From a virus, in IMG/VR virus record IMGVR_UViG_3300037010_003037, positions 64,001 through 128,000 of that record: DNA of 64,000 nucleotides; one strand, given 5' to 3'. Both the position numbers and the translations under genes were made by a program. Position 1 is the stretch's first letter; each line of letters starts with the position of its first letter. Below, one piece after another: positions 1 to 21,721 of this stretch. Below the pieces are notes generated by a model. The model was not told the origin of the DNA. It made no database searches and saw only the letters and a program-made list of their open reading frames with translations.

Positions 1-818
1 CGCACAAGGCGTGTGCTGTGCAATCTGAAACTGATCGTTTTATCACAATTGATGGCGATAATATCGTTTATCCAGAGTTCTTTGAGCTAGAGCTAGATAT
101 TCCTGATAATTTAAAGGACGCAACTCTTAGCTGGGCGGGTCGTAACATAATTAATGGGCTTGCGTATGGAAACGGTGGATTAAAACTTTGGACAAAAGAA
201 TTTGTTCTCAATATGCGCACACATGAAAATGCGACACGTGATGAAGAGAAAGTAGATTTCTGCTGGGATGCTAAGTACGTACAACTCAACAACATTTATT
301 CTGATACGTGTCCTAATGGCTCTCCATTCCAGGCATTTAGAGCTGGATTTAGAGAAGGAGTAAAGATGACGCTTGACAGAGGAATGAAGGCTGGTGAAGG
401 ATCAGTATCACGATACGTTCATGAAAAAAATTATCGTCGCTTGCTTATCTGGGCATCTATTGGCGCTGATGTAGAAAATGGACTGTGGGCAATTTATGGA
501 ACACGCCTTGGTATCTACATGGCAAACATTGAGGCATCATTTGATATCGCTCAAATTTCAGATTATGACTGGTTTAAGAATTACTTCTACAATGAGATTG
601 CACCTATGCTAGAAGGTAATAAGACAGATAAGTGTTCACGAACTGGGCAGCGATGGGATAAGAACTTGCTGATTGAAAAAAGTAGAGAACTGTTAGCTCC
701 GTTGCAAAAGAAACTTGGCATGAATATTACTGACATGACTCCAGAACAATCACTATTTTTCAAAACTGTATATGAGCCACCAGTTAGAAACGTTAATCCT
801 TTAATGATTGAAAGCTGA
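1..818 (+). CDS. Glycosyltransferase-like protein (GT-A), 5'-truncated by window edge
   Basis: Frame is open from base 3 (HKACAVQSETDRFITIDGDN). DxD-like IDGD, YGNGGLKLW and AFRAGFREGVK align with AHMAACKKANTQFFYVVDAD, YGYGGVKLF and AFRGAFRESVK of the 11199 gene. Confidence 0.65.
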   Translation, partial: HKACAVQSETDRFITIDGDNIVYPEFFELELDIPDNLKDATLSWAGRNIINGLAYGNGGLKLWTKEFVLNMRTHENATRDEEKVDFCWDAKYVQLNNIYSDTCPNGSPFQAFRAGFREGVKMTLDRGMKAGEGSVSRYVHEKNYRRLLIWASIGADVENGLWAIYGTRLGIYMANIEASFDIAQISDYDWFKNYFYNEIAPMLEGNKTDKCSRTGQRWDKNLLIEKSRELLAPLQKKLGMNITDMTPEQSLFFKTVYEPPVRNVNPLMIES

Positions 819-829
819 TTTAGACATGG

Positions 830-1330
830 AACAGAACGCCTAAATTGTAAAGTAATTTTTAAAAACTAATTTTAATAGACACATATTCAAAATAAATTTA
901 GATTTAATGTATTCATCTAATGAATTTAGTAAACTCGTGTAGAGTATATTCTTACAATGGATTAAATTTGAGAAATACTATGTTCAAACATTTTTTAACA
1001 TCCTAAATAAGAATAGGAATTTTGTTCAAACACAGCGTGTGATGACTATCAATGTGGGGCTATATTTAAATTTTACTGCATTCATGTAAGCTCATGTGAG
1101 GTAATAATATTAAGAGTTAAATATCCTCTCAAGAATTATTTCTATCATCTAATATTTTGCACTTTTCATCATTTCAAACAATACTGTTCTTCCAAAGGAT
1201 ATTATAAATAAAAGTGTTGACAAACTTGAAGAATAGTTTCATAAAAATGAAAATAAACTTTGAAATATTTGATAATGTGATAGTAATTTGTTGACAAAAA
1301 TTCTATAAAAACTAAAAAAAAAAGGCTACT
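830..1330 (+). pseudogene. Probable decayed radical-SAM gene remnant
   Basis: No ORF. Fragments in mixed frames (KTNFN, MYSSNEFSKLV, EYI, NGLN, VMTINVGLYLNFTAFM, TVLPKDIINKSVDKLEE) occur in the same order as NTNMN, IFTSAEGTGKQQEYSRFGMEW, FMTTVNLFSFSTFDKFL, TLLSSEEK of 4381..5772. Aligned by eye only. Confidence 0.35.
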
Positions 1331-1387
1331 GAGGAAAGTTGAATAAAACCTATTGTGTGTAAATCTTGAGTCAATGGTTAATGAAAA

Positions 1388-2302
1388 ATGAGAAAAACTA
1401 AATTATTTAGTGGTGATTTAACACAACAACAACAGATAACACGATTTAAACCAAATTCTGTTATGCTTTTTATTAATGGCAACAGAGATATAAATGATAC
1501 AGAAAAAGCCCTTAAAGAAAACAGAACAACTTATAGTCCGGCTGATGTAAATTATAAATTTAATAGTCATGGATTTAGATGTGATGAATTTGAAGAAACG
1601 AATTCACCGGTAATAGTTTTTACTGGCTGCTCATTTACGTTTGGTAGTAGCTTACCGTTAGAAGATGTATGGGCATACCGTGTAGTAAAAAGATTACGTG
1701 AAGAAGTAGATCCAAATATTAAGTATTTTAATATAGCAAAGCCTGGTGCATCTATAGATTCAATGGTTCGTGCCATTTTGGCATTTAGAAAACACTATAA
1801 TCCAGATGTAGTGGTTGGTTTGCTTCCTCAGATGATACGTTTAGAAATGTTTTGTGATCCGGGCGTAGTTAAAGAAGTTTTTTATGCGTCAGAAAACATA
1901 CGATCTTCAATTGATTATGTTGACCTACCTAATCATGCATTGCAAAATGTGAAAAACTATGAAGAGCTATTTTTCGGTGATCCTTTCTTAGATGCATATC
2001 GTCTGTCAAAAAATTTAGCTATGTTTGACATGTATCGAGAAATAACTGGTTGTGAAATGATTTTGTCATCATGGCAAAAATATGATGAATTATTTGAACA
2101 TATAGGTGATGATTATAGTCATTTGTTTACTCCTTTCTTTTATAATTGTGATATTACATGGCCGTTAAAAATTATAGGAAAGACAAGCAAATATGCTTTG
2201 GATGGTATGCATCCGGGACCAGCACATAATGAAGCTTTTGCTCATCTAATGTACCCACTGGTGAAAGCAGCTGTTGAAAAGAAAATAGCTAATAGAAAAT
2301 AA
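1388..2302 (+). CDS. SGNH/GDSL-type hydrolase or acyltransferase, paralog 1
   Basis: Block I GCSFTFG, block II NIAKPGAS, C-terminal DxxH (DGMHPG); NSHGFR motif before block I. Confidence 0.75.
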   Translation: MRKTKLFSGDLTQQQQITRFKPNSVMLFINGNRDINDTEKALKENRTTYSPADVNYKFNSHGFRCDEFEETNSPVIVFTGCSFTFGSSLPLEDVWAYRVVKRLREEVDPNIKYFNIAKPGASIDSMVRAILAFRKHYNPDVVVGLLPQMIRLEMFCDPGVVKEVFYASENIRSSIDYVDLPNHALQNVKNYEELFFGDPFLDAYRLSKNLAMFDMYREITGCEMILSSWQKYDELFEHIGDDYSHLFTPFFYNCDITWPLKIIGKTSKYALDGMHPGPAHNEAFAHLMYPLVKAAVEKKIANRK

Positions 2303-2356
2303 TTTGTCTAGATGTTTTTATATTGTCTTTAAAGAAATTAAAGATAGAAAAATAGA

Positions 2357-3298
2357 ATGTCTAAATATAAAAAAAAGTTATTCACAGGTAATCTAAAAGA
2401 GCAGCATAATATTTGTCCTATGATGCCTAGCATAACTACACCTATTTGTGGTGTTAATTCTATACCTATTTGTGATAATGCAATCAAGGAAAATAGAACA
2501 GCTTATAGTCCTGCTGATGTAATATATAAGTCAAATAGTCATGGATTTAGATGTGATGAATTTGAAGAAACGAATTCACCGGTAATAGTTTTTACCGGTT
2601 GTTCATATACATTTGGTCTCTGTGTTCCACTAGAAGATGTATGGGCATACCGTATCATAAAAAGATTACGTGAAGAAGTAGATCCAAATATTAAGTATTT
2701 TAATATAGCAAAAGCAGGTTCATCTATAGATGCTATGATTCGCGCTCTTTTGACATTTAGAAAACACTATAATCCAGATGTTGTCGTTGGTTTGCTTCCG
2801 CCGAGATGGCGAATAGAATTGTTTTGTGATCCAGGAGAGATTAAAGACTTAGTACATCAATCAGTAAATTTACGTAAGTTATTTAGTTTTGATATTTCAT
2901 CTGAAACTGAAAAAGAAACACTACTCAAATACGAAGAGCTATTTCTTGGTGATCCTTTCTTAGATGCATATCGTCTGTCAAAAAATTTAGCTATGTTTGA
3001 CATGTATCGAGAAATAACTGGTTGTGAAATGATTTTGTCATCATGGCAAAAATATGATGAATTATTTGAACATATAGGTGATGATTATAGTCATTTGTTT
3101 ACTCCTTTTTGGATGGACCCTGATATAACTTGGCCAGTAAAAATTATAGGAAAAACAAGCAAATACGCTTTAGATGGTGGACATCCTGGACCAGCACATA
3201 ATGAAGCTTTTGCTCATCTAATGTACCCACTGGTGAAAGCAGCTGTTGAAAAGAAAATAATTAACAGAAAAACTAGTTCTTTAGAAGAATTAGAATAA
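2357..3298 (+). CDS. SGNH/GDSL-type hydrolase or acyltransferase, paralog 2
   Basis: GCSYTFG, NIAKAGSS, DGGHPG; long tracts identical to paralogs 1 and 3. Confidence 0.75.
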   Translation: MSKYKKKLFTGNLKEQHNICPMMPSITTPICGVNSIPICDNAIKENRTAYSPADVIYKSNSHGFRCDEFEETNSPVIVFTGCSYTFGLCVPLEDVWAYRIIKRLREEVDPNIKYFNIAKAGSSIDAMIRALLTFRKHYNPDVVVGLLPPRWRIELFCDPGEIKDLVHQSVNLRKLFSFDISSETEKETLLKYEELFLGDPFLDAYRLSKNLAMFDMYREITGCEMILSSWQKYDELFEHIGDDYSHLFTPFWMDPDITWPVKIIGKTSKYALDGGHPGPAHNEAFAHLMYPLVKAAVEKKIINRKTSSLEELE

Positions 3299-3398
3299 CT
3301 GTATCGAATTAAATTCAAAAACGAATATCAGTAAATATATCATTCATTTTATGATGATGTCTCGAAATTGATTAAACATACAAAAGAAAAGGACTAAA

Positions 3399-4319
3399 AT
3401 GGCTGAACATCAAATGATATTTGCAGGTGATCTAAAAACGCAATATTATGTTCGTCCTTTAGTGCCTAACATAACTACACCTATTCTTAATGTTAATTTA
3501 ATACCCACTATTGAAGAAGCTCTTAAAAAGAACAGAACAGCTTATAGTCCCGCTGATGTAATCTATAAGTCAAATAGTCATGGATATAGATGTGATGAAT
3601 TTGAAGAGACAGATGCCCCCGTAATAGTTTTTGTTGGCTGCTCATATACATTTGGCTCTGGCGTTCCACTAGAAGATGTATGGGCATACCGTGTAGTAAA
3701 AAGATTACGTGAAGAAGTAGATCCAAATATTAAGTATTTTAATATAGCAAAGCCTGGTGCATCTATAGATTCAATGGTTCGTGCCATTTTGGCATTTAGA
3801 AAACACTATAATCCAGATGTAGTGGTTGGTTTGCTTCCGCCGAGATGGCGAATAGAATTGTTTTGTGATCCAGGAGAGATTAAAGATCTTGTGTATCAAT
3901 CAGCAAATTTGCAGAAGTTATTTCGTCTTGCAAATTCATCTGAGGCTGCAAAAGAAACATTACGTAAGTATGAAGAGTTTTTTCTCGGTGATCCTTTCTT
4001 AGACGCATATCGTCTGTCAAAAAATTTAGCTATGTTTGACATGTATAGAGAAATAACTGGTTGCGAAATGATATTGTCTTCATGGCAAAATTATAAAGAG
4101 CTATTTAAACATGTAGGTGATGATTATAGTCATTTGTTTACTCCTTTTTGGATGGACCCTGATATAACTTGGCCAGTAAAAATTATAGGAAAAACAAGCA
4201 AATATGCTTTGGATGGTATGCATCCAGGACCAGCTCATAATGAAGCTTTTGCTCATCTAATGTACCCATTAGTAAAAGCTGCTGTTGAAAAACGAATAGA
4301 GAAAAATAGATTAGAGTGA
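3399..4319 (+). CDS. SGNH/GDSL-type hydrolase or acyltransferase, paralog 3
   Basis: GCSYTFG, NIAKPGAS, DGMHPG; long tracts identical to paralogs 1 and 2. Confidence 0.75.
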   Translation: MAEHQMIFAGDLKTQYYVRPLVPNITTPILNVNLIPTIEEALKKNRTAYSPADVIYKSNSHGYRCDEFEETDAPVIVFVGCSYTFGSGVPLEDVWAYRVVKRLREEVDPNIKYFNIAKPGASIDSMVRAILAFRKHYNPDVVVGLLPPRWRIELFCDPGEIKDLVYQSANLQKLFRLANSSEAAKETLRKYEEFFLGDPFLDAYRLSKNLAMFDMYREITGCEMILSSWQNYKELFKHVGDDYSHLFTPFWMDPDITWPVKIIGKTSKYALDGMHPGPAHNEAFAHLMYPLVKAAVEKRIEKNRLE

Positions 4320-4332
4320 ATGTATATCCAAA

Positions 4333-4340
4333 CATAAATA
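4333..4340 (+). promoter_or_regulatory. T4-type late promoter (CATAAATA)
   Basis: Variant of TATAAATA 40 bp upstream of the radical SAM gene. The same box precedes structural genes on the minus strand. Confidence 0.55.
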
Positions 4341-4380
4341 ATTCATACTAATCATCAAGAATAAAACACATATCTATATT

Positions 4381-5772
4381 ATGAGCAATCAGCAAAGAAT
4401 CACAAAACTTAAAGAAAAAATCGAGCAGATTAATGCTGTCAGCCCAACATTTTGCTTAGCAAAATGGAAACAAACAACAACAACGTTGTACAACGGCATG
4501 ACACATTCATGTCACCATCCCTCACCGCATAAAATTCAAGTTGAGGATATCAAGAATAACCCACGTGGCTTACATAATACACCTATCAAAATTGCTGCCC
4601 GTCAAGACATGTTAAATGGCATTCAAACAAAAGAATGTGACTATTGCTGGAATATTGAAAATCTAGGGCAACAACATTTTTCTGATAGGCATTACAAAAG
4701 CGCGTCTGAAAACATGGGTATCTGGCAAACTCTTGAAGAGGTAAAAGCATCAGGCCTTGGAGAAAATATTGACCCGGCATACATGGAAATTGCTTTTGAA
4801 AATACATGTAATTTTAAGTGCGCATACTGTTCTCCAGCCGTAAGTTCTCGTTGGATGGAAGAAGTGCAAGCCCATGGTCCATACCAATTACCTCATCATA
4901 CTCATCACCACTTGGATTGGCTGAAACAAACAGGACAATTTCCTATTCATCATAAAGAATATAACCCATATATTGAGGCATTTTGGAAGTGGTGGCCTGA
5001 ACTATACCAAAATTTGTACACCTTTCGTATTACAGGTGGTGAACCATTGCTCAGTGAAAACACCTGGAAGATCATTGACTACGTGATCGCTAACCCACGT
5101 AAAGACTTTAAGCTTGCTATCAACACGAACATGAACGTGCCTGCTAAGCTGATCGACCGCTTAATTAAAAGTATTAACGAACTTGAATCTAAAATACATG
5201 AGATTGACATTTTTACCTCAGCAGAAGGAACAGGAAAACAACAGGAATATTCACGTTTTGGCATGGAATGGGATGTGTTTGTAGCTAACTGCGAAAAATT
5301 TCTTGAACAAACACCAGAAAGCGTTCGGCTTCAGTTCATGACAACTGTTAACCTATTTTCATTTTCAACATTTGATAAGTTCTTGCTGTGGATTTCTGAT
5401 TTACGTGGCAAGTTCAACAAGGACGTTGCATATAGCCGAGTAGGCTTTTCTGTAGCTTATCTTCGTTGGCCTCAGTTCTTATCTTTGACACTTCTATCTT
5501 CAGAAGAAAAGGCTGATTTTGCTAGAAGACTACAAGCAGTTATTGACGAGACTAATTCTCGCCCACAGTTGCAGCGCTTTTATATAGAAGAAATTGATAT
5601 GATTCATCGTCTCATTGACTTCATTAACTCTGTAGAGAATGGCCAACAGATAGAGATTGAAAATTTTGCAGCGTTTGTAGATGAATATGATAAACGTAAA
5701 GGAACGAATTTTTTTGAGACGTTTCCAGAGCTTGTTGATTTATACAATCGCGGTAAAATCAGAAAAACTTAA
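4381..5772 (+). CDS. Radical SAM enzyme with N-terminal twitch/SPASM-like Cys domain
   Basis: CNFKCAYC (CxxxCxxC), ITGGEP, NTN; auxiliary Cys in FCLAKW, SCHH, ECDYCW. Confidence 0.9.
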   Translation: MSNQQRITKLKEKIEQINAVSPTFCLAKWKQTTTTLYNGMTHSCHHPSPHKIQVEDIKNNPRGLHNTPIKIAARQDMLNGIQTKECDYCWNIENLGQQHFSDRHYKSASENMGIWQTLEEVKASGLGENIDPAYMEIAFENTCNFKCAYCSPAVSSRWMEEVQAHGPYQLPHHTHHHLDWLKQTGQFPIHHKEYNPYIEAFWKWWPELYQNLYTFRITGGEPLLSENTWKIIDYVIANPRKDFKLAINTNMNVPAKLIDRLIKSINELESKIHEIDIFTSAEGTGKQQEYSRFGMEWDVFVANCEKFLEQTPESVRLQFMTTVNLFSFSTFDKFLLWISDLRGKFNKDVAYSRVGFSVAYLRWPQFLSLTLLSSEEKADFARRLQAVIDETNSRPQLQRFYIEEIDMIHRLIDFINSVENGQQIEIENFAAFVDEYDKRKGTNFFETFPELVDLYNRGKIRKT

Positions 5773-5781
5773 TATAACTCT

Positions 5782-5789
5782 CATAAATA
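5782..5789 (+). promoter_or_regulatory. T4-type late promoter (CATAAATA)
   Basis: 25 bp upstream of the 36-aa ORF and carbamoyltransferase pair. Confidence 0.55.
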
Positions 5790-5814
5790 AAATTTTCAAC
5801 TTGTCTTCAAAACT

Positions 5815-5925
5815 ATGAAAAACCTATTAGATAAAATTAAAGAACTTATATCTCAATGGAAATATAAGAAAGCTAGAAAAAAGCGCTTGGCAGAAATGAA
5901 AAAGAAGGATCCATTCATTTATTAA
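5815..5925 (+). CDS. 36-aa basic peptide MKNLLDKIKELISQWKYKKARKKRLAEMKKKDPFIY (absent from the ORF track)
   Basis: ATG 5815 to TAA 5925. Fills the gap, follows a late box and stops 1 nt before the carbamoyltransferase ATG. Confidence 0.75.
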   Translation: MKNLLDKIKELISQWKYKKARKKRLAEMKKKDPFIY

Positions 5926-5926
5926 T

Positions 5927-7405
5927 ATGAATATTTGGGGCATAAATGCAATGAATCACGATGCTTCAATAAGCGTCGTGGATTCTGATACTGGATCTAT
6001 CCTTTTTGCGGGACACGCAGAACGTTATAGTAGAATAAAAAATGATCCAAACTTAAATGAAGGGTTGATAGCTGACGCATGTCAGGTTGGTAAACCTGAT
6101 ATTATAGTTTGGTACGAAAACCCATATGGAAGAAAGATACGTAACCTTCTAAGTGGAGATTTTGAATCTTTTTTTACATGGGAATCTCCGCAAAAGTATC
6201 TTAAAGCATATGGAATTGACGCACCGGTAAAGTATTCAAATCACCATGCTTCACATGCTGCTGGTGGTTTTTACACATCAGGGTTTAATGATGCTGCCAT
6301 TCTTGTTGTTGATGCTATAGGAGAAATGTCAACTGCATCTATTTGGCACGCGCGTGGGGAAAAACTTACTAAAAAATGGTCTTTAAATTATCCCCATTCA
6401 GTTGGGTTGTTTTACAGCGCCATAACAGATCTAGTAGGTTTGAAGCCAAATGAAGAAGAATACATTCTTATGGGAATGGCCGCGTACTCAAAGCACAACT
6501 ATATTCTAACTGATTATGTGCTTAACACGTTCTTTAAAGATGACCTATGTCTAAAGCAAAGATTCAATTTTCATCGTGGTGTAAGAGGTGATAGTTTTCT
6601 TCAATATGTTGCTTCTACAGAGCAAGGAAAATATGATCTTGCTGGAATGGCACAAGAAATTGTTGAAATGTGCGTTCAACGACTTGTTGATATGACAGAG
6701 GATTTTGTGGACTCTGAAAATCTGGTGTATTCTGGTGGAGTTGCGCTAAACTGTGTAGCAAATGAAAAAATACAGCATAATTATAAAAACGTTTGGATTT
6801 TGCCTAATCCTGGTGATGCCGGAAATTCGCTTGGAGCCATAGCAAACTACCTTAGAAAACCACTTAAGTGGAATGGACCTTTCTTAGGTTATGAAATTAA
6901 AAAAGCACTTGATGTTGATGCTATAGTAGAAGAATTACTAACTACTGGTATTTGTGGCGTCGCACACGGAAGAGCCGAGTTTGGCCCGCGCGCATTTGGT
7001 AACAGATCACTTCTTGCAGATCCACGCAGACCGGATATCAAGGATAAAGTAAACAGCATTAAGAGACGTCAAAAATTTAGACCTTTTGCCCCTGCTGTTT
7101 TATCTAGGTTCGCTAACGAGTACTTTTATCTTGACGATACTAGCAAAGATGCTAAGTACATGCAATATGCTGTACCAGTAATTGTTGATAATCTACCAGC
7201 AATCACACATGCTGATGGAACTGCTAGGGTACAAGTTGTTTCTGATGAAGCCACTACACTTAATCAAATTCTCGAGGCATGGTATGTAAAAACTGGTTGC
7301 CCGGTTTTACTAAACACTTCTCTAAACATAAAAGGAGAACCATTAGTGAACACGTGGGAAGATGCTGTTAGATGGCAGAATTGTTACAATGTTAAGGTTT
7401 TTTGA
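5927..7405 (+). CDS. Carbamoyltransferase, NodU/CmcH/TobZ family
   Basis: NHDAS, ERYSRIKND, HHASHAA, VDAIGE, GGVALNC, PGDAG, EFGPRAFGNRSLLADP, KRRQKFRPFAP, HADGTARVQ, LLNTSLN. Confidence 0.95.
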   Translation: MNIWGINAMNHDASISVVDSDTGSILFAGHAERYSRIKNDPNLNEGLIADACQVGKPDIIVWYENPYGRKIRNLLSGDFESFFTWESPQKYLKAYGIDAPVKYSNHHASHAAGGFYTSGFNDAAILVVDAIGEMSTASIWHARGEKLTKKWSLNYPHSVGLFYSAITDLVGLKPNEEEYILMGMAAYSKHNYILTDYVLNTFFKDDLCLKQRFNFHRGVRGDSFLQYVASTEQGKYDLAGMAQEIVEMCVQRLVDMTEDFVDSENLVYSGGVALNCVANEKIQHNYKNVWILPNPGDAGNSLGAIANYLRKPLKWNGPFLGYEIKKALDVDAIVEELLTTGICGVAHGRAEFGPRAFGNRSLLADPRRPDIKDKVNSIKRRQKFRPFAPAVLSRFANEYFYLDDTSKDAKYMQYAVPVIVDNLPAITHADGTARVQVVSDEATTLNQILEAWYVKTGCPVLLNTSLNIKGEPLVNTWEDAVRWQNCYNVKVF

Positions 7406-7412
7406 TAACTCT

Positions 7413-7477
7413 TGTTACAATTTAACATTATCTGTTACACTTTAACAGTTCACAGCTGGTTCTAGGTGGTGTATAAT
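7413..7477 (+). promoter_or_regulatory. Sigma70-like promoter preceded by two palindromic TGTTA-N5-TAACA sites
   Basis: TGTTACAATTTAACA (7413-7427), TGTTACACTTTAACA (7433-7447), then TTCACA (7449) - 17 bp - TATAAT (7472). Confidence 0.65.
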
Positions 7478-7503
7478 TACACATCACTCACTAATGTGCT
7501 GTT

Positions 7504-7815
7504 ATGTCCTACAAGCTTTTCATTGATGATGAACGCTGGCCTATTGATGATGGAACGACATGGGTGATAGCTCGGTCTTCTGCTGATGCTATCACAGCGG
7601 TTGAGTGTCTGGGTGTGCCAGAATATATCAGCTACGATCATGATCTTGGCGGTGATGATACTTCCATCAAGTTTATCTGGTGGTTGATTAACGCGTACTT
7701 GGACAAAAAGATCACAACATTTCCAATCAATTATTATGTGCACAGCCAAAACCCAGTTGGCGCGGAAAACATTCGCTCTCTGTTGTTTAGTTTTATCGAA
7801 TCTGAAGTAAAATAA
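7504..7815 (+). CDS. Cyclic-phosphate-processing receiver-like (cREC) protein
   Basis: LFIDDER, ISYDHDLG, VHSQNPVG motifs; adjacent to an RNA ligase. Confidence 0.75.
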   Translation: MSYKLFIDDERWPIDDGTTWVIARSSADAITAVECLGVPEYISYDHDLGGDDTSIKFIWWLINAYLDKKITTFPINYYVHSQNPVGAENIRSLLFSFIESEVK

Positions 7816-7882
7816 TGTAACTCGACGTGAATTTTTAATTCACAGATGATACAATAGCTTCTAAACTTAAAGTGAGATTAAA

Positions 7883-9025
7883 ATGCTGCACATCTCTAAC
7901 ATCGATGAATTTCGTTCCCATGTAGCGCACAAGGAAGAAATCCGTGAAATGGATATCGGTTTTGATTCCATTTCTTTCTGCTACATGGTCGCTGCTGAAA
8001 AAACGTTTGATGATGCGTGGGCACTCGAGTGTCGTGGCATTGTTTTTGATAAAGTTTCTGGTCGTGTGAGTGGTCGACCATTGCACAAATTTTTTAACGT
8101 TGGTGAACGAGAATCCACGCTTCCTGAAAATCTTGATTGGTCAAAGGTTGTGCGTGTTATGGATAAGCGTGATGGATCACTAATTCATACGGTGCAGACG
8201 GCTCATGGTGTTAGGTTAAAATCTAAGAAGACATTTAGCTCAGCCGTTGCGCTAGCTGCTGAAAAATGGATGCGTGAACAGCCGGGTCAGCACGTCCTAT
8301 CTTTTGCTAACTTTGTCACTGCTCAAAATTTAACAGCTATCTTTGAATGGACGGCGCCGGATGCTCGCATTGTGCTGTTCTATCCAGAAGCTGAACTACG
8401 ATTGTTGCATATTCGTCATAATGAAACTGGCGATTATGTTGCTGGGAACATCTTAAAAGAATGGGCTGAAAAATTTAACGTGAATGTTGTTGATGAAGTT
8501 GATGAATTCTTTGAAGCCCAAGGTAGTCAGACCACATTCAATCATCGCAAGATGTTGGAAGCAGCGAAGACTCGCGAGGGTATTGAAGGCTGGGTTGTCC
8601 AGTTCGAGAATGGTGACATGGTCAAGGTAAAGACCGATTGGTACCTAAAACGCCACCATGCAATGACATTTCTTCGTGAACGAGATATCGCGCAACTAGT
8701 TTTGGACGAAAGCTTGGATGACATGAAGTCGCTGCTGGTTTCAGAAGGCGTCAACATTAATGAAATTCTTGAGATTGAAGAGCGTGTTCTTCATGACCTA
8801 CGCGAAATTGCGTTGACTGTTGACATGATCTATAGTGAAGATAAGGACTTGCCACGAAAAGATTTTGCGATCAAGCACAGCTCACACAAGTACTTTGGTA
8901 TGCTGATGGCAAAGTACAGTGGTAAAGAGCCTTCGTTTAAGGACTACTTCGCGCGCAATGTGTTGAAGAACAACTACAGTCTGCGTCAGTTAGTTCTTGT
9001 TCCTTCAGTTGCTGAAGGTGATTAA
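7883..9025 (+). CDS. RNA ligase, T4 Rnl1-like
   Basis: ECRGIVF, PLHKFFNVGE, motif I KRDGSLI, IFEW, EGWVV, KVKTDWY. Confidence 0.9.
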   Translation: MLHISNIDEFRSHVAHKEEIREMDIGFDSISFCYMVAAEKTFDDAWALECRGIVFDKVSGRVSGRPLHKFFNVGERESTLPENLDWSKVVRVMDKRDGSLIHTVQTAHGVRLKSKKTFSSAVALAAEKWMREQPGQHVLSFANFVTAQNLTAIFEWTAPDARIVLFYPEAELRLLHIRHNETGDYVAGNILKEWAEKFNVNVVDEVDEFFEAQGSQTTFNHRKMLEAAKTREGIEGWVVQFENGDMVKVKTDWYLKRHHAMTFLRERDIAQLVLDESLDDMKSLLVSEGVNINEILEIEERVLHDLREIALTVDMIYSEDKDLPRKDFAIKHSSHKYFGMLMAKYSGKEPSFKDYFARNVLKNNYSLRQLVLVPSVAEGD

Positions 9026-9083
9026 CTAACTGAAGCTAAATAACTTCCAGTTTTCTACATTTCAGGTCAAGCACTTAAGGAGC

Positions 9084-9332
9084 ATGCATAAACTCAAGAT
9101 GTACATTTTTGTCGAAAAAGAGTATAATCATACTATGACTGGACAGGCTGCTATGAAAAACACTCAAAACGTAGTACCAAGATTGCTGATGAATCTTTCA
9201 TCTAATGAAAGAACTATGAAAAATGATTTGAAATCAAAATCTAACGGAACTAAACACAATAATAGAAAGAACAAACAAGTGATACCAGCGTTGTTCAAGC
9301 CATTTGTCTGTAACCATAATCTAGGGTGCTAA
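9084..9332 (+). CDS. Hypothetical protein (start uncertain, may be spurious)
   Basis: Fills the gap, but a TGTACA-17-TATAAT promoter (9100-9128) lies inside its 5' end. Confidence 0.3.
   Translation: MHKLKMYIFVEKEYNHTMTGQAAMKNTQNVVPRLLMNLSSNERTMKNDLKSKSNGTKHNNRKNKQVIPALFKPFVCNHNLGC
9100..9128 (+). promoter_or_regulatory. Sigma70-like promoter
   Basis: TGTACA - 17 bp - TATAAT. Confidence 0.5.
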
Positions 9333-9605
9333 ATGTTCAACATTGAAAAAATTCAAAACAACAACGTGAAAGCGTTAGCTGAACTATGCGTTGTCCAACA
9401 CAGCAATTCTGGGACGTCTATGGCTAATGAATTCGACTTGGAAAAATTTGCGATGCTTATCGTGAGTGAGTGTATTAAGTCCATTGAAACGTATGAAATT
9501 CCAGTAGGCAACAGCCCAGCTGGGGAAATGGCGTTTGAATGGACATATGATGCTCTAGCACAAATTCGAGATGACATTAATGAAAAATTTATGGTGAATA
9601 AATGA
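9333..9605 (+). CDS. Hypothetical protein
   Basis: 90-aa ORF; stop overlaps the next start (ATGA). Confidence 0.7.
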   Translation: MFNIEKIQNNNVKALAELCVVQHSNSGTSMANEFDLEKFAMLIVSECIKSIETYEIPVGNSPAGEMAFEWTYDALAQIRDDINEKFMVNK

Positions 9606-9754
9606 GTGAGCTTGCTATTATTGGAATTATGCTTTTTGCATGGTTTCAGGGGTTAATTGTCGGTTACATCATGTGGGGCCCTGATTCTGAATTCAAGCGG
9701 GGCTTCATTGATGGAATTACTCTTAAATTTATTTGGAAACGGTTGGTCAAATGA
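9602..9754 (+). CDS. 50-aa small membrane protein (absent from the ORF track)
   Basis: MSELAIIGIMLFAWFQGLIVGYIMWGPDSEFKRGFIDGITLKFIWKRLVK; ATGA overlaps at both ends; hydrophobic N-half. Confidence 0.7.
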   Translation: MSELAIIGIMLFAWFQGLIVGYIMWGPDSEFKRGFIDGITLKFIWKRLVK

Positions 9755-9957
9755 TTCAAATTGTCTTTCCTGAAAAATGGCAGTGCGAAATTGCTGATAT
9801 GCTTTGGGCTGCTGAATCGTATGACGAAGTTCAATCAATCATTGAAACATATGGTGTTGAGGCAGAAGTTGTTTATGAAATGATCATCGCTGCTACACTT
9901 GATGAAGAAGATCTTGACTTGACGCTCGCGCAAGAAGTTATCCGGAGCGTGAAGTGA
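9751..9957 (+). CDS. Hypothetical acidic protein (start moved to ATG 9751)
   Basis: MIQIVFPEKW...; ATGA coupling with the upstream stop. Confidence 0.7.
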   Translation: MIQIVFPEKWQCEIADMLWAAESYDEVQSIIETYGVEAEVVYEMIIAATLDEEDLDLTLAQEVIRSVK

Positions 9958-10012
9958 GAATGAAAAACAAAAAGCATAGCATTAATTCTTTCTAAAATAG
10001 CATAAGTCAAAT

Positions 10013-11101
10013 ATGAGAAAATTAGTTACAATCAGAAAAATCAATGATTTGTCCCCCATTTTGGGTGCTGATAACATTGAAGTTGCATCTATTGATGGGT
10101 GGAAAGTTGTAGTTAAGAAGGGAGAGTTCAAAGTCGGAGATCCCTGTGTGTATTTTGAAATTGATAGCTTCCTTCCTGAATCTGATCCGCGCTACGCGTT
10201 CATTATGAAAAGTGGTGTTCGGGAGTTCGAAGGGATTCGTGGGCACAAGCTGCGCACGGTAAAACTTCGCGGTCAAATTAGTCAAGGTTTGGCTTTGCCA
10301 TTAGGTCAAGCTAATAACACGATGTTTCCGGAAATCTGGCAGTATTTGCGGGATCACCATTTTGACGAAAATAATCCATACGAGGCTGACTTCAGTGCAC
10401 TGTTGGGAATTAAAAAATGGGAACCACAACTACCTGCTGAGCTAGCTGGTCAAATTAAGGGGGTATTCCCGAGTTTTATTCGTAAGACAGATCAGGAACG
10501 GTGTCAAAATCTTATTGATGAGATCTTTATTGACAATGCCGATTCAAAGTATGAAGTCACCATTAAGCTAGATGGAACTAGCGCTACTTTCTACCATCAT
10601 GACGGTTACACTGGAGCATGTAGTCGGAATTTTGAGATGAAGATTTGCGATGAAAATGCTACAAACACTTATGTTAGAATCCTAATTGAAAGTGGATTGC
10701 AGACTGCTTTACCTAAGTTTGGTAACATTGCAGTGCAAGGTGAAATTATGGGCCCTGGGATTCAGGGAAACCGTGAAAAATTGAAGACAGCAAAATTCTT
10801 CATTTTTGACGTGTACTTGATTGATGAGAGTCGTTACATGACTCCTGTTGAACGTAAGAATTTTGTCAATGTGCTACTTCCTCAGTTGAACGCTGAATTG
10901 GTTTCTCATGTGCCTGTCATTGCTGAAGCGGCAAACTTGCGTGATACACTTGGAATTACAAACATTGAACAACTTTTGCAGTTCGCGGCTGGCAAGAGCC
11001 TAGTTCATCCTGTGCGTGAAGGTCTTGTTTTCAAGCGGGATGACGGTAACTTCAGTTTTAAAGCAATTAACAATGAATTTCTCGCAAAAGAAAAGGACTG
11101 A
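10013..11101 (+). CDS. RNA ligase, Rnl2/DRB0094 family
   Basis: N-terminal OB-like module (GADNIE, VYFEIDSFLP, KLRGQISQGL), KTDQERCQN, motif I KLDGTS, QGE, FIFDV, EGLVFK, FKAI. Confidence 0.9.
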   Translation: MRKLVTIRKINDLSPILGADNIEVASIDGWKVVVKKGEFKVGDPCVYFEIDSFLPESDPRYAFIMKSGVREFEGIRGHKLRTVKLRGQISQGLALPLGQANNTMFPEIWQYLRDHHFDENNPYEADFSALLGIKKWEPQLPAELAGQIKGVFPSFIRKTDQERCQNLIDEIFIDNADSKYEVTIKLDGTSATFYHHDGYTGACSRNFEMKICDENATNTYVRILIESGLQTALPKFGNIAVQGEIMGPGIQGNREKLKTAKFFIFDVYLIDESRYMTPVERKNFVNVLLPQLNAELVSHVPVIAEAANLRDTLGITNIEQLLQFAAGKSLVHPVREGLVFKRDDGNFSFKAINNEFLAKEKD

Positions 11102-11198
11102 AATATTTTTCTAGACATGAGAATTTACTTGAAAACGTGATTAAAAATTGAAGTAAATAAGTCTATCTTCTTATAACAACCATACATGATAGATTAAA

Positions 11199-12539
11199 GT
11201 GCTAGATATTATCTTCATCTCATACGATGAGCCAAATGCTGATAAAAACTGGAAAAATCTAAAAGCTAGATTTCCATATGCAAAGCGCGTTCATGGTGTA
11301 AAAGGCATCGCGAACGCGCACATGGCTGCATGCAAAAAGGCAAACACACAGTTTTTCTACGTAGTAGATGCTGATGCTGAGATTTTAGATTCATTTAAGT
11401 TTGATTACAAACCTCCTGAATATGATTCAGAGTATGTTCACATCTGGCATGCTCTAAATCCGGCAACAGGGCAAGATTATGGGTATGGAGGTGTAAAGCT
11501 CTTTAATAAGAAGCATTTCCGCAACGTAAAGAACGCGCTAGATTTCTCTACCACGCTTACTAAAGATGTGAAAATTATAGATAAAATTGCATGCATTACC
11601 CGCTTTAATTCTGATGCTGTTAGAGCGTTCCGGGGTGCGTTTAGAGAATCTGTAAAGTTATACACTATCATCAATGATGAAAGCAAACCAGAAAATCAAC
11701 GAATTGAAGCTAGAAATAGGTTAGATAGATGGCTTAATCCTGTTCAGGATTGTGATTACCAAGAAATCATTGCTTTAGGTGCACGGGATGGTATAGAGCA
11801 AGCAAAACAGAGAGGTGATGATCTATCATTTATCAATGATCATGATCTAATGTTTAGAATGTTAATGACTGCGCACCCAGAAATTGATCCAAATATCGAG
11901 CCACAACTTAATGAAAATCATCCTATGAAGCACGAATTTTTCTTTACTACACGAATTGCTGGTGTTCTTTATGATAAGTTTATTGAAGAAAATCTCTCAT
12001 TAAATGAATTGCGAGATGCTCTTTCTGACGGTCAAATGTACAGCAAAACATGGCTAGTGGAGGAATTATCCAAACTGATTGAAAGCGGTAAAATTGAAAA
12101 GAAAGAAAAATACCATGTTGTAGTGCTGGGGGGTTGGATTGGGCTACTATCGCTCATGTTATTCACATGGGAATTTCCTGTATCTGTGATTAGTATTGAC
12201 ATTGATCATCGAGCTAATATGATTGCAGAGAAAATGAATTGGGGATTTGATTTTAAAGCTGTACATAATGATATGTATAACACTAACTACGCTGAGTTTG
12301 ACATTATTATCAACACATCATCAGAACACATTCCTGATATTCCAGCATGGCGGGCAACTATTCCTTCAAAAAAAATTGTCATTGTGCAAAATACTGATTA
12401 TGAAGATGGCGACGGGCATGTCTCTATAGTTAGCAGCTCAAATCAGCTTAGAAATAAGTTAAATCTCTCAGAAGTTTTGTATGAGGGAACTAGAAAATTC
12501 AATCAGTACAACAGGTTTATGATTATTGGAAGAACCTAA
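11199..12539 (+). CDS. Glycosyltransferase fused to class I SAM-dependent methyltransferase
   Basis: N-terminal FISYDEPNA and VVDADA (DxD); C-terminal SKTWL, VLGGWIG, SIDID, IINTSSEH. GTG start with a TAAATA box about 40 bp upstream. Confidence 0.75.
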   Translation: MLDIIFISYDEPNADKNWKNLKARFPYAKRVHGVKGIANAHMAACKKANTQFFYVVDADAEILDSFKFDYKPPEYDSEYVHIWHALNPATGQDYGYGGVKLFNKKHFRNVKNALDFSTTLTKDVKIIDKIACITRFNSDAVRAFRGAFRESVKLYTIINDESKPENQRIEARNRLDRWLNPVQDCDYQEIIALGARDGIEQAKQRGDDLSFINDHDLMFRMLMTAHPEIDPNIEPQLNENHPMKHEFFFTTRIAGVLYDKFIEENLSLNELRDALSDGQMYSKTWLVEELSKLIESGKIEKKEKYHVVVLGGWIGLLSLMLFTWEFPVSVISIDIDHRANMIAEKMNWGFDFKAVHNDMYNTNYAEFDIIINTSSEHIPDIPAWRATIPSKKIVIVQNTDYEDGDGHVSIVSSSNQLRNKLNLSEVLYEGTRKFNQYNRFMIIGRT

Positions 12540-12567
12540 TTCAAGATTACATTGTTGATGGCGGATG

Positions 12568-12576
12568 TGATATAAT
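12568..12576 (+). promoter_or_regulatory. Extended -10 promoter TGATATAAT
   Basis: TGnTATAAT followed by an AAGGAG RBS and ATG 12595. Confidence 0.45.
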
Positions 12577-12594
12577 TATCTCTAAGGAGATTGT

Positions 12595-13071
12595 ATGGAA
12601 CTTCGCCTTTATGTTTTCATTAACTATCAGCTAAATTCAACACAACAAAATATACAAGCTGGGCGTGCAGCACTTAATCTTGTTGAAAAGTACACTGCAA
12701 AAGATAATCCTTTTAATGTGAGTATTGTTAAAGAGCACACTGATCTAGTTAAACTGTGGGCAAGTAGTAAAAATCTTTTTACGGTGGTTAATGCTGTGTG
12801 TATTCTTGAGCTTGCAAAAGCAACGAGCATTATCTCAAAGTCTGATTTTCCATGGGTAATTATCAGAGAAGATAAAGAAGATGGTAATCAACACCAAATG
12901 GGTGTTGCTGTTATTTTGCCAGACTGTATTTTTTCGGCAAACAAGAAACACCACGCAAATAATGTAATTGAATATTTTGAATACGTGGATAAAGATGAAA
13001 AACGATACGCATTTATGAAAGGTCAACCTCGTTTTGACCTTATCAAGCTAATTAAAACTTATCAGAAATAA
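12595..13071 (+). CDS. Peptidyl-tRNA hydrolase 2 (PTH2)-like phage protein, divergent
   Basis: RLYVFIN...IQAGRAA, ...IIRED, GVAVILP resemble the PTH2 layout; the conserved His appears as Arg. Confidence 0.45.
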   Translation: MELRLYVFINYQLNSTQQNIQAGRAALNLVEKYTAKDNPFNVSIVKEHTDLVKLWASSKNLFTVVNAVCILELAKATSIISKSDFPWVIIREDKEDGNQHQMGVAVILPDCIFSANKKHHANNVIEYFEYVDKDEKRYAFMKGQPRFDLIKLIKTYQK

Positions 13072-20741: not shown

Positions 20742-20984
20742 ATGAAAATGATTCTACACGCTGAAGAACCAAATGATCCCGTGGTTGGGGATGCTTACAT
20801 TGGCAAAATGACCCGCACAGTAAATGTGTTTGATGGAAATGCATGGTAAACATTCAATGAATATGAGCTTTTAGAAATGGAAATGATTCATCTACTTATG
20901 ACAACAGGTAGGACACGACAACAAGCTGAGCGTGCAATTCACATGCTACAACATGGGCACATTCACAATGGAGACAAAGAATGA
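20742..20984 (+). pseudogene. 80-codon gene interrupted by one in-frame TAA (20847-20849)
   Basis: MKMILHAEEPNDPVVGDAYIGKMTRTVNVFDGNAW*TFNEYELLEMEMIHLLMTTGRTRQQAERAIHMLQHGHIHNGDKE*; AAGGA RBS; final TGA overlaps the next ATG. Confidence 0.6.
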
Positions 20985-21721
20985 AATTATCGACAGAGAA
21001 TACTGCTAAACTTACGTCTCTGCTCAATACAGCAAGTATTTGCGGTATTGAGAGCATCATTATAATTGATGATAAGGCCCGTGGTATCAACCCAGCAAAA
21101 ACATGTTTTTTAGTATCAAGTGATAATCTTCCAAAATTTCCTCAGAAGATCGGTCTTGGTCGCTTAAAGGATCTTCAATCACGCATCAATGTTTTTGCAG
21201 ATAAATCTGATGTCGTTATTGATGCAAAAGAATCAGAGCGCGGCGAGATTACATCACTTGAAATTTCTTCTGGGCGTAATAAGGTTCAATATCGTTGTCA
21301 ATCCACTATGATGCTGGCAGATAGCATTCCTAAGAATGTTCCTGACGCATTCAACCCTGCGTATAAGCTGTTCATCAATAAAGACGAGATGAAAATGATT
21401 CTTGATGCAGTACGTGTTATGAACAGCAAGCGAATTACTGTTGCTATCAAAAATGATCGCACGGTAAGTTTTACAGTTAGTGATGCATCTAATGACAATT
21501 TTACAGTAATTCTTTCTACCCCTGCAGAGCGAATTACTGAAGATGAAGATACCGTTGTAAATTACTATGTAACAGAGGTGTTCTCGCCAGTTGTTAAAGA
21601 GCTTATGTCTCTTGACACCGCGGTGGTTCATGTCGGTGAACGTGGAACTATGACGGCAAAGATCAATCAACATAATGTCGTGCTACTCCCGCAAGTGGGT
21701 GACGACGGAGAGGAAGAATAA
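20981..21721 (+). CDS. Probable sliding clamp (gp45-like)
   Basis: 246 aa; N-terminus MKLSTENTAKL resembles gp45; alternating alpha/beta pattern; next to PolB. Confidence 0.55.
   Translation: MKLSTENTAKLTSLLNTASICGIESIIIIDDKARGINPAKTCFLVSSDNLPKFPQKIGLGRLKDLQSRINVFADKSDVVIDAKESERGEITSLEISSGRNKVQYRCQSTMMLADSIPKNVPDAFNPAYKLFINKDEMKMILDAVRVMNSKRITVAIKNDRTVSFTVSDASNDNFTVILSTPAERITEDEDTVVNYYVTEVFSPVVKELMSLDTAVVHVGERGTMTAKINQHNVVLLPQVGDDGEEE

Follow-up and report, generated by a model that had tools for sequence, protein, structure and literature searches.

A fibre-linked glycosyltransferase and radical SAM cassette of giant T4-like phages, a candidate system for tailoring a virion glycan

Glycosylation of capsid and tail-tube proteins has been described in mycobacteriophages (Freeman et al. 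2023, as cited in PMC12619734). In these phages and in the chlorovirus PBCV-1, as in the locus described here, soluble glycosyltransferases (GT) of the GT-A fold and methyltransferases are encoded near structural genes. A second arrangement, termed the host recognition cluster, has been described in pelagimyophages and cyanomyophages. In this variable region of T4-like phages, genes for tail fibres occur together with glycosyltransferase genes, most commonly of family GT8, and with radical S-adenosylmethionine (SAM) gene cassettes (Zaragoza-Solas et al. 2020, PMC7029224). Here we analyzed a gene cluster at the 5′ end of a 64,000-nucleotide (nt) stretch of viral DNA, referred to as the window, which corresponds to bases 64001–128000 of the 147.7-kb IMG/VR record IMGVR_UViG_3300037010_003037. 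The window covers the right-hand half of a conserved cassette, linked to fibre genes, that recurs across a large clade of uncultured T4-like jumbo phages with genomes of ~350 kb. The folds and families of the encoded enzymes, the gene order, the link to fibre genes, a promoter-like motif and the independence of the genes from hydroxymethylcytosine are directly supported. In our preferred explanation, to which we give a probability of about 0.5, the cassette acts late in infection, and its soluble enzymes assemble and edit a glycan whose cytoplasmic acceptor is probably protein of the virion; what we infer here is the timing of expression, the product and the acceptor. A literature search found no paper assigning a function to the cassette.

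Gene order and fibre linkage of the cassette

Coordinates are window positions unless labelled L004 or genome, and all listed genes lie on the plus strand (Table 1). The record was estimated by CheckV to be 42% complete, implying a genome of ~350 kb. T4-like replication genes (family B DNA polymerase, DnaB-like helicase and exonucleases) lie 3′ of the cluster, and beyond them is a minus-strand block containing baseplate, hub and very large fibre genes. The nearest deposited phage is Ralstonia phage RsoM2USA (45–52% protein identity), which is the sole cultured carrier of the cassette among 50,697 phage records; a near-identity DNA search of these records with the region gave no match, and an Rfam scan of positions 1–13000 found no RNA family. 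The IMG/VR genome G003 (358 kb, with terminal repeats) is syntenic with the source phage at ~60% identity.

A sequence-only reading of the window, made from its letters and open reading frames (ORFs), had described a cluster of tailoring enzymes at positions 1–12539. The cluster is larger than this: five further genes on the same strand, designated gA to gE, form its beginning, which lies 4.6 kb before the window. gA encodes a fibre-like protein, gB a small helical protein that is possibly a chaperone, and gE occupies a variable slot. Together with the window genes, the core of the cassette comprises, in order, gA, gB, the GT8 pair gC/gD, the gE slot, the glycosyltransferase gene g1, a radical SAM gene whose product has an N-terminal auxiliary cluster, and g14, which encodes a GT2-like transferase joined to a methyltransferase.

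The cassette is conserved in hundreds of related phage contigs. Among 80 viral loci seeded with g14, many of which end at contig ends, gC and gD were each found in 61, gB in 50, the radical SAM gene in 49 and gA in 27, and the gene order was constant. The order in G003 is gA-gB-gC-gD-gE-g1-radical SAM-carbamoyltransferase, and that in RsoM2USA is 355(gA)-354(gB)-353(gC)-352(gD)-351-350(g1)-349(radical SAM)-348/347(g14). Conserved co-occurrence in relatives, which the sequence-only reading had named as a check on its proposal, is thus strong across the 80 loci, G003 and RsoM2USA. In RsoM2USA, the cassette lies directly 3′ of the virion protein ORF356 and the tail sheath ORF359, both of which were identified in virions by mass spectrometry (PMC8504454).

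The N-terminal ~90 residues of gA form an anchor domain common to proteins with Peptidase_S74, collagen or lectin-like C-termini, and this pairing of a shared N-terminus with varied C-termini is characteristic of tail fibres that can be exchanged. Between one and three genes of the gA type were located immediately before gB in 21 of the 27 loci with at least 3 kb of upstream DNA, and G003 has a second gA-type gene right after the carbamoyltransferase gene. No transmembrane segments were found in the cassette proteins. Accessory tailoring genes plug into the conserved core according to lineage; in the source phage these are a carbamoyltransferase gene with its micro-protein gene, and a triplet of SGNH genes.

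Encoded enzymes, upstream motifs and insertions

The sequence-only reading had listed two paralogous glycosyltransferases (one fused to a methyltransferase), three SGNH enzymes, a radical SAM enzyme, a 36-amino acid (aa) peptide and a carbamoyltransferase. Every gene was found and the family assignments stand, on the evidence given in this and the following section. Single-sequence searches of Pfam, PHROG and NCBIfam with g1, the SGNH triplet, g14 and gA–gE returned nothing beyond weak PHROG matches. Because g1, the triplet and g14 lacked a single-sequence Pfam match, other routes were used for them, namely fold search, family profiles and paralogy.

The AlphaFold2 model of g1 had a predicted local distance difference test (pLDDT) score of 93.6. 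Residues 3–152 gave VIA Z scores from 9.8 (root-mean-square deviation 3.1 over 133 aligned residues) down to 7.3, and the top 50 VIA matches were all GT-A transferases or sugar nucleotidyltransferases. Foldseek, a check that had been proposed for each gene and was run on g1, also returned GT-A matches (E 5e-4 to 9e-3), including the PBCV-1 capsid glycosyltransferase A64R (PDB 2P6W/2P72). In the DxD motif, D66 was invariant and D64 nearly invariant among 50 homologues; g1 homologues numbered 1148 representatives. P0185, P0190 and about 15 others of these representatives are ~730–750 aa long; some g1 homologues carry an N-terminal fusion to a GT-B (GT1/GT28-type) glycosyltransferase domain, and others are tandem duplications of the g1 domain.

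The N-terminal ~160 aa of g14 are paralogous to g1 (E 6e-20), with D57 and D59 of the DxD motif invariant in 46 homologues. PF00535 scored 13.9 bits on g14, below the cut-off of 23.3, and was sub-threshold in 11 of the 46 homologues; among the 1562 homologues, some of the longer ones carry PF00535 in precomputed annotation. Fold searches with full-length g14 were filled by methyltransferases, and the profile of g14 gave a chance match only against PDB sequences, so that the N-terminal domain is called as a probable GT-A domain from its paralogy to g1. In the AlphaFold2 model (pLDDT 90), residues 263–446 adopt a class I SAM methyltransferase fold (VIA Z 16.7) with a glycine-rich SAM loop and an acidic residue after strand 2; W313, G315 and D334 are invariant and G311, G312 and I314 nearly invariant; the Pfam model Methyltransf_25 was sub-threshold in 22 of the 46 homologues. 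The closest protein relative of g14 is 77% identical. In RsoM2USA, its orthologue consists of two ORFs, genes 347 and 348 (L093:7950-9331), one encoding the glycosyltransferase half and the other the methyltransferase half. Since the methyltransferase is a separate gene in RsoM2USA and in many other viral loci, the g14 fusion is lineage-specific.

Single gC and gD sequences had no Pfam match. When a joint gC/gD profile was compared with the PDB, all 19 of 19 matches were glycogenin-1 or -2 (GT8; best E 7.9e-7), with the DaD of the profile aligned to DAD, and the structure match in the protein atlas was named nucleotide-diphospho-sugar transferase.

The radical SAM enzyme exceeded the cut-off of NF033640 (N_Twi_rSAM) and has the CxxxCxxC motif at C143/C147/C150, preceded by an N-terminal four-Cys group (C25, C44, C86 and C89). 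RsoM2USA gp349, encoded after the g1 orthologue, is 51% identical to it. The source phage and G003 have one N_Twi radical SAM copy each. The relatives G001, G002 and G004, the records behind L033, L024 and L044, respectively, have from 10 to ~20 paralogues per genome, mostly clustered beside the g1 orthologue. These three genomes are 92%, 100% (with terminal repeats) and 97% complete, respectively.

The SGNH genes g2, g3 and g4 are tandem paralogues with 72–82% aa identity, and their closest protein relatives are 51–56% identical. Single sequences matched nothing in Pfam or NCBIfam, and a protein-atlas search with g3 gave a lead to PF00657, present in 15% of the nearest named cluster. The triplet-family profile (31 sequences) was compared with the PDB, and all 15 of 15 matches were SGNH/GDSL proteins (best E 1.5e-4), with the nucleophile block I (GCS) and block V (DxxH) aligning to the GDSL esterase 3HP4. 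G81-C82-S83 was invariant in the 31 sequences, and D273 and H276 were invariant in the full-length set; N116 and G121 were nearly invariant, although sequence alone does not assign them to blocks II and III. The spacer and triplet (819–4380) have a GC content of 33%. Because g1 is directly followed by the radical SAM gene in G003 and in the near relatives L180–L183, the spacer and the triplet represent an insertion in the source lineage, a recent one in the case of the triplet. SGNH-like genes do occur in such cassettes elsewhere, 30 of 64 loci having one close to a radical SAM gene, and RsoM2USA has a second module in the order 203(SGNH-like)-202(radical SAM)-201-micro-ORF-200-199(carbamoyltransferase). 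The three copies in the source phage are mosaic: identical runs of 161–169 nt between pairs alternate with strongly diverged segments, one spanning the first ~120 nt and another in the middle. Such a pattern suggests gene conversion together with diversification of particular regions.

A TAAATA motif was found upstream of many genes in the record. Within 80 nt 5′ of 150 ORFs in the 147.7 kb, it occurred 38 times in sense and 6 times in antisense orientation; the sense positions peaked at −60 to −30, and an A preceded the box at 20 of 33 sites. It precedes the baseplate and fibre operons and, within the cluster, gB, the radical SAM gene, the micro-ORF and g14; G003 retains the box 45 nt before gB. 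The four boxes reported earlier in the window were all recovered within 2 nt of the positions first given. The sequence-only reading had also set these boxes against σ70-type promoters in a block of RNA-repair genes. TAAATA is indeed a real upstream motif, and the best σ70-like site of the region does precede the block, but σ70-like sites were not above chance in the region (45 found versus 48.9 expected) and a TAAATA box also occurs within the block, at 9037. Late expression of the cassette is a reasonable supposition from the TAAATA motif. The RNA-repair block itself is an insertion, because g14 is the next gene after that for the radical SAM enzyme both in RsoM2USA and in many other viral loci. 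It is common only to the source phage and its nearest relatives (G003, L095 and L180–L183).

Table 1. Positions of genes, motifs and inserted segments in and next to the window
Feature	Position	Strand	Remarks
gA (488 aa), gB (126 aa), gC (300 aa), gD (287 aa), gE (275 aa)	L004:14348-18865	same as cluster	5′ of window
g1, GT-A (GT2-like) glycosyltransferase-like, last 271 codons of 318 aa	1..818	+	starts 138 nt before window (L004:18862-19818)
AT-rich 570-bp spacer, left edge of SGNH insertion	819..1387	.	carries TATAAATA at 1203-1210
TAAATA box in spacer	begins 1205	+	motif scan
g2, SGNH/GDSL-like paralogue 1, 304 aa	1388..2302	+	72-73% identical to g3/g4; GCS...DxxH invariant
g3, SGNH/GDSL-like paralogue 2, 313 aa	2357..3298	+	paralogy, motifs, family profile
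g4, SGNH/GDSL-like paralogue 3, 306 aa	3399..4319	+	paralogy, motifs, family profile
TAAATA late-promoter-like box	4335..4340	+	motif scan; 46 nt before radical SAM start codon
Radical SAM enzyme, NF033640 (N_Twi_rSAM)	4381..5772	+	332.9 bits versus cut-off 170, profile positions 1-398
TAAATA box	5784..5789	+	motif scan; 31 nt before micro-ORF
36-aa basic micro-protein ending DPFIY	5815..5925	+	hidden Markov model (HMM) family, carbamoyltransferase adjacency
NodU/CmcH/TobZ-family O-carbamoyltransferase, 492 aa	5927..7405	+	PF02543 129.5 bits, PF16861 163.9 bits, both above cut-offs
Best regional σ70-like site, TTCACA-17-TATAAT	7449..7477	+	precedes RNA-repair block
RNA-repair block, inserted, outside pathway	7504..11101	+	Pfam and PHROG matches
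cREC_REC domain protein	7504-7815	+	RNA-repair block
Rnl1-type RNA ligase	7883-9025	+	RNA-repair block; small ORFs follow
PHA02142/RNA_ligase protein	10013-11101	+	RNA-repair block
TAAATA box	11154..11159	+	motif scan; 45 nt before g14 start codon
g14, GT-A (GT2-like) ~residues 1-160, helical linker, class I SAM methyltransferase 261-446	11199..12539	+	model, fold search, paralogy

Candidate acceptors and rival explanations

In the mechanism that we propose, the soluble transferases would act late in infection, using nucleotide sugars of the host to assemble a short glycan whose acceptor, located in the cytoplasm, would most likely be the neighbouring fibre-type proteins or other proteins of the virion. 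The radical SAM enzyme would edit the sugars by C–H chemistry, the methyltransferase would O-methylate them, the carbamoyltransferase would O-carbamoylate them, and the SGNH enzymes would add or remove O-acyl groups.

Several points weigh against this explanation. The GT8 enzymes, to which gC and gD are similar, are typical of lipopolysaccharide (LPS) synthesis, and the cassette lacks genes for nucleotide-sugar synthesis. The proposed timing hangs on a 6-nt motif, and the complete T4 octamer TATAAATA shows no enrichment (3 occurrences versus 5.6 expected). In the source phage and its closest relatives, the gene just 5′ of gA is PhoH and not a structural gene. The role of the micro-protein is not accounted for by a virion glycan. 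There is no published experiment showing a glycan on these virions, and the virion proteomics of RsoM2USA consisted of ten gel bands in which modifications were not looked for (PMC8504454). Finally, host-surface modification is the favoured interpretation of the analogous pelagimyophage region (PMC7029224).

This last interpretation is the rival that survives best, although we consider it unlikely for the present cassette. Here, the LPS O-chain, the capsule or another envelope glycan would be altered, for example to block superinfection or the re-adsorption of progeny to lysing cells. In addition to the GT8-like nature of gC and gD, the proposed chemistry is compatible with such a target, since the glycans of bacterial surfaces commonly bear O-acyl and O-carbamoyl groups. 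The proteins of the cassette are, however, all soluble, and a flippase, a polymerase, an acyltransferase-3 membrane domain and a lipid-carrier transferase are absent from it; the late-type boxes and the neighbourhood of fibre genes also argue against a role at the host surface. Moreover, conversion of the host surface is best documented for temperate phages, whereas the source, a jumbo phage, is of lytic type and encodes T4-like replication genes. Zaragoza-Solas et al. did propose host-surface modification for the fibre-linked glycosyltransferase and radical SAM cassettes of pelagimyophages, which is the principal precedent in its favour (PMC7029224).

The second alternative is hypermodification of DNA, in which the cassette would extend or decorate glucosyl-5-hydroxymethylcytosine (glucosyl-hmC), or carbamoylate 5-hydroxymethylcytosine (5hmC), to give a methylated, carbamoylated or acylated DNA glycan. 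The sequence-only reading had preferred a glycan over DNA, in part because it saw no hydroxymethylase. That premise is true of the window and false of the genome: a T4 gp42-type deoxycytidylate (dCMP) hydroxymethylase is encoded at genome 16465-17268, 47 kb before the window, with E 1e-79 to PDB 1B49 and the cytosine-specifying Asp present, in addition to a canonical ThyA at genome 42991-43908. A T4-type β-glucosyltransferase (PF09198, 72 bits) lies at genome ~20804-21139, 43 kb before the window. Given both genes, the DNA of the source phage very probably carries glucosyl-hmC, and the hmC is thus predicted to have a transferase of its own. RsoM2USA likewise encodes a β-glucosyltransferase and a homologue of thymidylate synthase in which the residue that specifies cytosine is Asp. 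G003 has a hydroxymethylase and no PF09198 match; the hydroxymethylase/glucosyltransferase observation concerns loci L070 and L174.

The relatives G001, G002 and G004 have g1 homologues (53–54% identity) beside clustered radical SAM copies, and no dCMP hydroxymethylase was found in them, the three genomes having either no gene of the thymidylate-synthase family or only a canonical ThyA. The wider gC-gD-g1-radical SAM synteny was shown for G001 only among these three. The g1 homologues and clustered radical SAM genes therefore do not depend on a dCMP hydroxymethylase in the same genome, and DNA remains the less likely target.

The carbamoyltransferase bears on the same question. It consists of a Kae1-like N-terminal and a YrdC-like C-terminal domain, both Pfam matches being above the curated cut-offs, and its relatives in the PDB are the novobiocin enzyme, GdmN and TobZ (E 2e-50 to 1e-35). 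A characterized phage member of this NodU/TobZ superfamily makes 5-carbamoyloxymethylcytosine (Yang et al. 2021, PMC8670742), and the source genome, as noted, also encodes hmC synthesis. According to the same study, TobZ positions 408, 421 and 423 separate the carbamoyltransferases associated with DNA modification from the others (PMC8670742). At these positions the enzyme of the source phage reads V345, G358 and R360, being TobZ-like at two of the three; since these positions were mapped by short motifs and a constant offset of 63, with no structural alignment, the residues serve as supporting evidence only. The 5hmC carbamoyltransferase reads I, C and T in the corresponding motif (I...C-N-T; PMC8670742), unlike the V...G-N-R of the enzyme described here, which keeps G and R at the discriminating positions. 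Homologues in its clade sit with glycosyltransferases, the context that PMC8670742 reports for contigs without cytosine modification, and the gene is located 53 kb from the hydroxymethylase gene and not adjacent to it. With the hmC genes 43–47 kb away and the cassette linked to fibre genes and late-type boxes, we regard DNA as an improbable target. A glycan on virion proteins or the cell surface, preferred over DNA in the sequence-only reading, remains the best reading, although one of the two premises on which that preference had been founded was wrong.

The 36-aa peptide of the sequence-only reading proved to be the product of a real, conserved gene. Eleven members of its family of basic micro-proteins, from different phages, have 33–45 codons and end in [KR]x[KRQ]DP[FY]IY, optionally followed by one residue; the HMM recovered members at E ≤ 3e-9, the next best small ORF having an E of 1.8. 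A new sample comprised 78 viral loci with a carbamoyltransferase gene; a micro-ORF was found immediately 5′ of that gene in 30 and within 6 kb in 10 more. The micro-ORF thus goes with the carbamoyltransferase gene and not with those for the radical SAM enzyme or the transferases. Most cassette loci lack it, as does the cassette of the nearest relatives L180–L183, and the G003 copy lies elsewhere. Further micro-ORFs were seen in RsoM2USA (L001:11026-11148) and in L029, L062, L123, L138 and L158; that of RsoM2USA lies between genes 201 and 200 and is unannotated in the deposited genome. Ten micro-proteins had no Pfam match at E ≤ 1. SxtK/DUF5989 was considered as an identity and ruled out, as its family model (PF19451) gave no match at E ≤ 10 in five records bearing the micro-ORF.

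On this evidence of adjacency and conservation, the DPFIY micro-protein is a conserved partner of phage carbamoyltransferases, newly recognized here. It may be a small subunit, a carrier or an acceptor. A stronger proposal is that it is the obligatory partner of a clade of phage O-carbamoyltransferases, serving either as an acceptor-carrier through its C-terminal Tyr or an attached glycan, or as a specificity subunit, and that together with the expanded radical SAM enzymes it constitutes a new glycan or glycopeptide tailoring system on tail fibres; this we find doubtful.

In a third alternative, the product would be derived from a peptide, with the micro-protein as precursor or carrier; the radical SAM enzyme would process its C-terminus, and glycosylation, methylation and carbamoylation would follow. 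Mycofactocin is a loose parallel, having a precursor with C-terminal Val-Tyr, a radical SAM enzyme (MftC), a GT2 enzyme (MftF) and a methyltransferase. This explanation would fit the near-invariant C-terminal DP(F/Y)IY, the location of the micro-ORF no more than about three genes away from an N_Twi radical SAM gene in 7 of the 11 loci, the auxiliary Fe–S Cys cluster frequent in peptide-modifying enzymes and the presence of GT2-like and methyltransferase domains. Yet it is quite improbable, considering that the micro-ORF tracks the carbamoyltransferase gene and is missing from most cassettes, that no peptidase or recognition-element protein was identified and that a Cys-, Ser- or Thr-rich core is lacking in the peptide.

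Significance and comparison with described systems

If a virion glycan is indeed the product, then a very common group of giant phages of aquatic and soil environments would bear a coat of edited sugar on the fibres or on other proteins of the particle, with consequences for host recognition, for the shielding of the particle and for its stability. The first substrates would also be in hand for an unstudied radical SAM family that reaches 10–20 copies in some phages. Because the cassette is present in a cultured phage, RsoM2USA, the question is directly testable. That the micro-protein and the carbamoyltransferase form a conserved pair is a smaller result, open to a test of its own.

The likeness of the cassette to the glycosylation systems of mycobacteriophages and PBCV-1 lies in its type of enzymes and their genomic setting. 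A64R of PBCV-1 was among the best fold matches to g1, but the cassette is known from genes alone, and homology at the sequence level is not part of the likeness. To our knowledge, the radical SAM, carbamoyltransferase, SGNH and GT8-pair components are not part of either system. NF033640 is catalogued without an assigned reaction; the window enzyme is a full-length member, and the source phage has a single copy of a family that is greatly expanded in related phages. The arrangement of the carbamoyltransferase and micro-protein genes resembles that of the SxtI system, in which an O-carbamoyltransferase gene is likewise adjacent to conserved short ORFs whose function is unknown, namely sxtJ and sxtK (PMC2885083); the likeness is one of gene arrangement only. 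A jumbo lineage termed moraphages, which has four core glycosyltransferase groups (PMC12619734), was compared by description and was not equated with the present clade, since moraphages are smaller and lack much of the replication machinery. The host recognition cluster of the pelagimyophages, also compared by description, was described only in terms of gene categories, belongs to marine phages of ~150 kb and was read as modifying the host O-chain (PMC7029224). By comparison, the cassette of the source phage has a fixed, ordered core, is carried by jumbo phages of ~350 kb and is preceded by late-type boxes.

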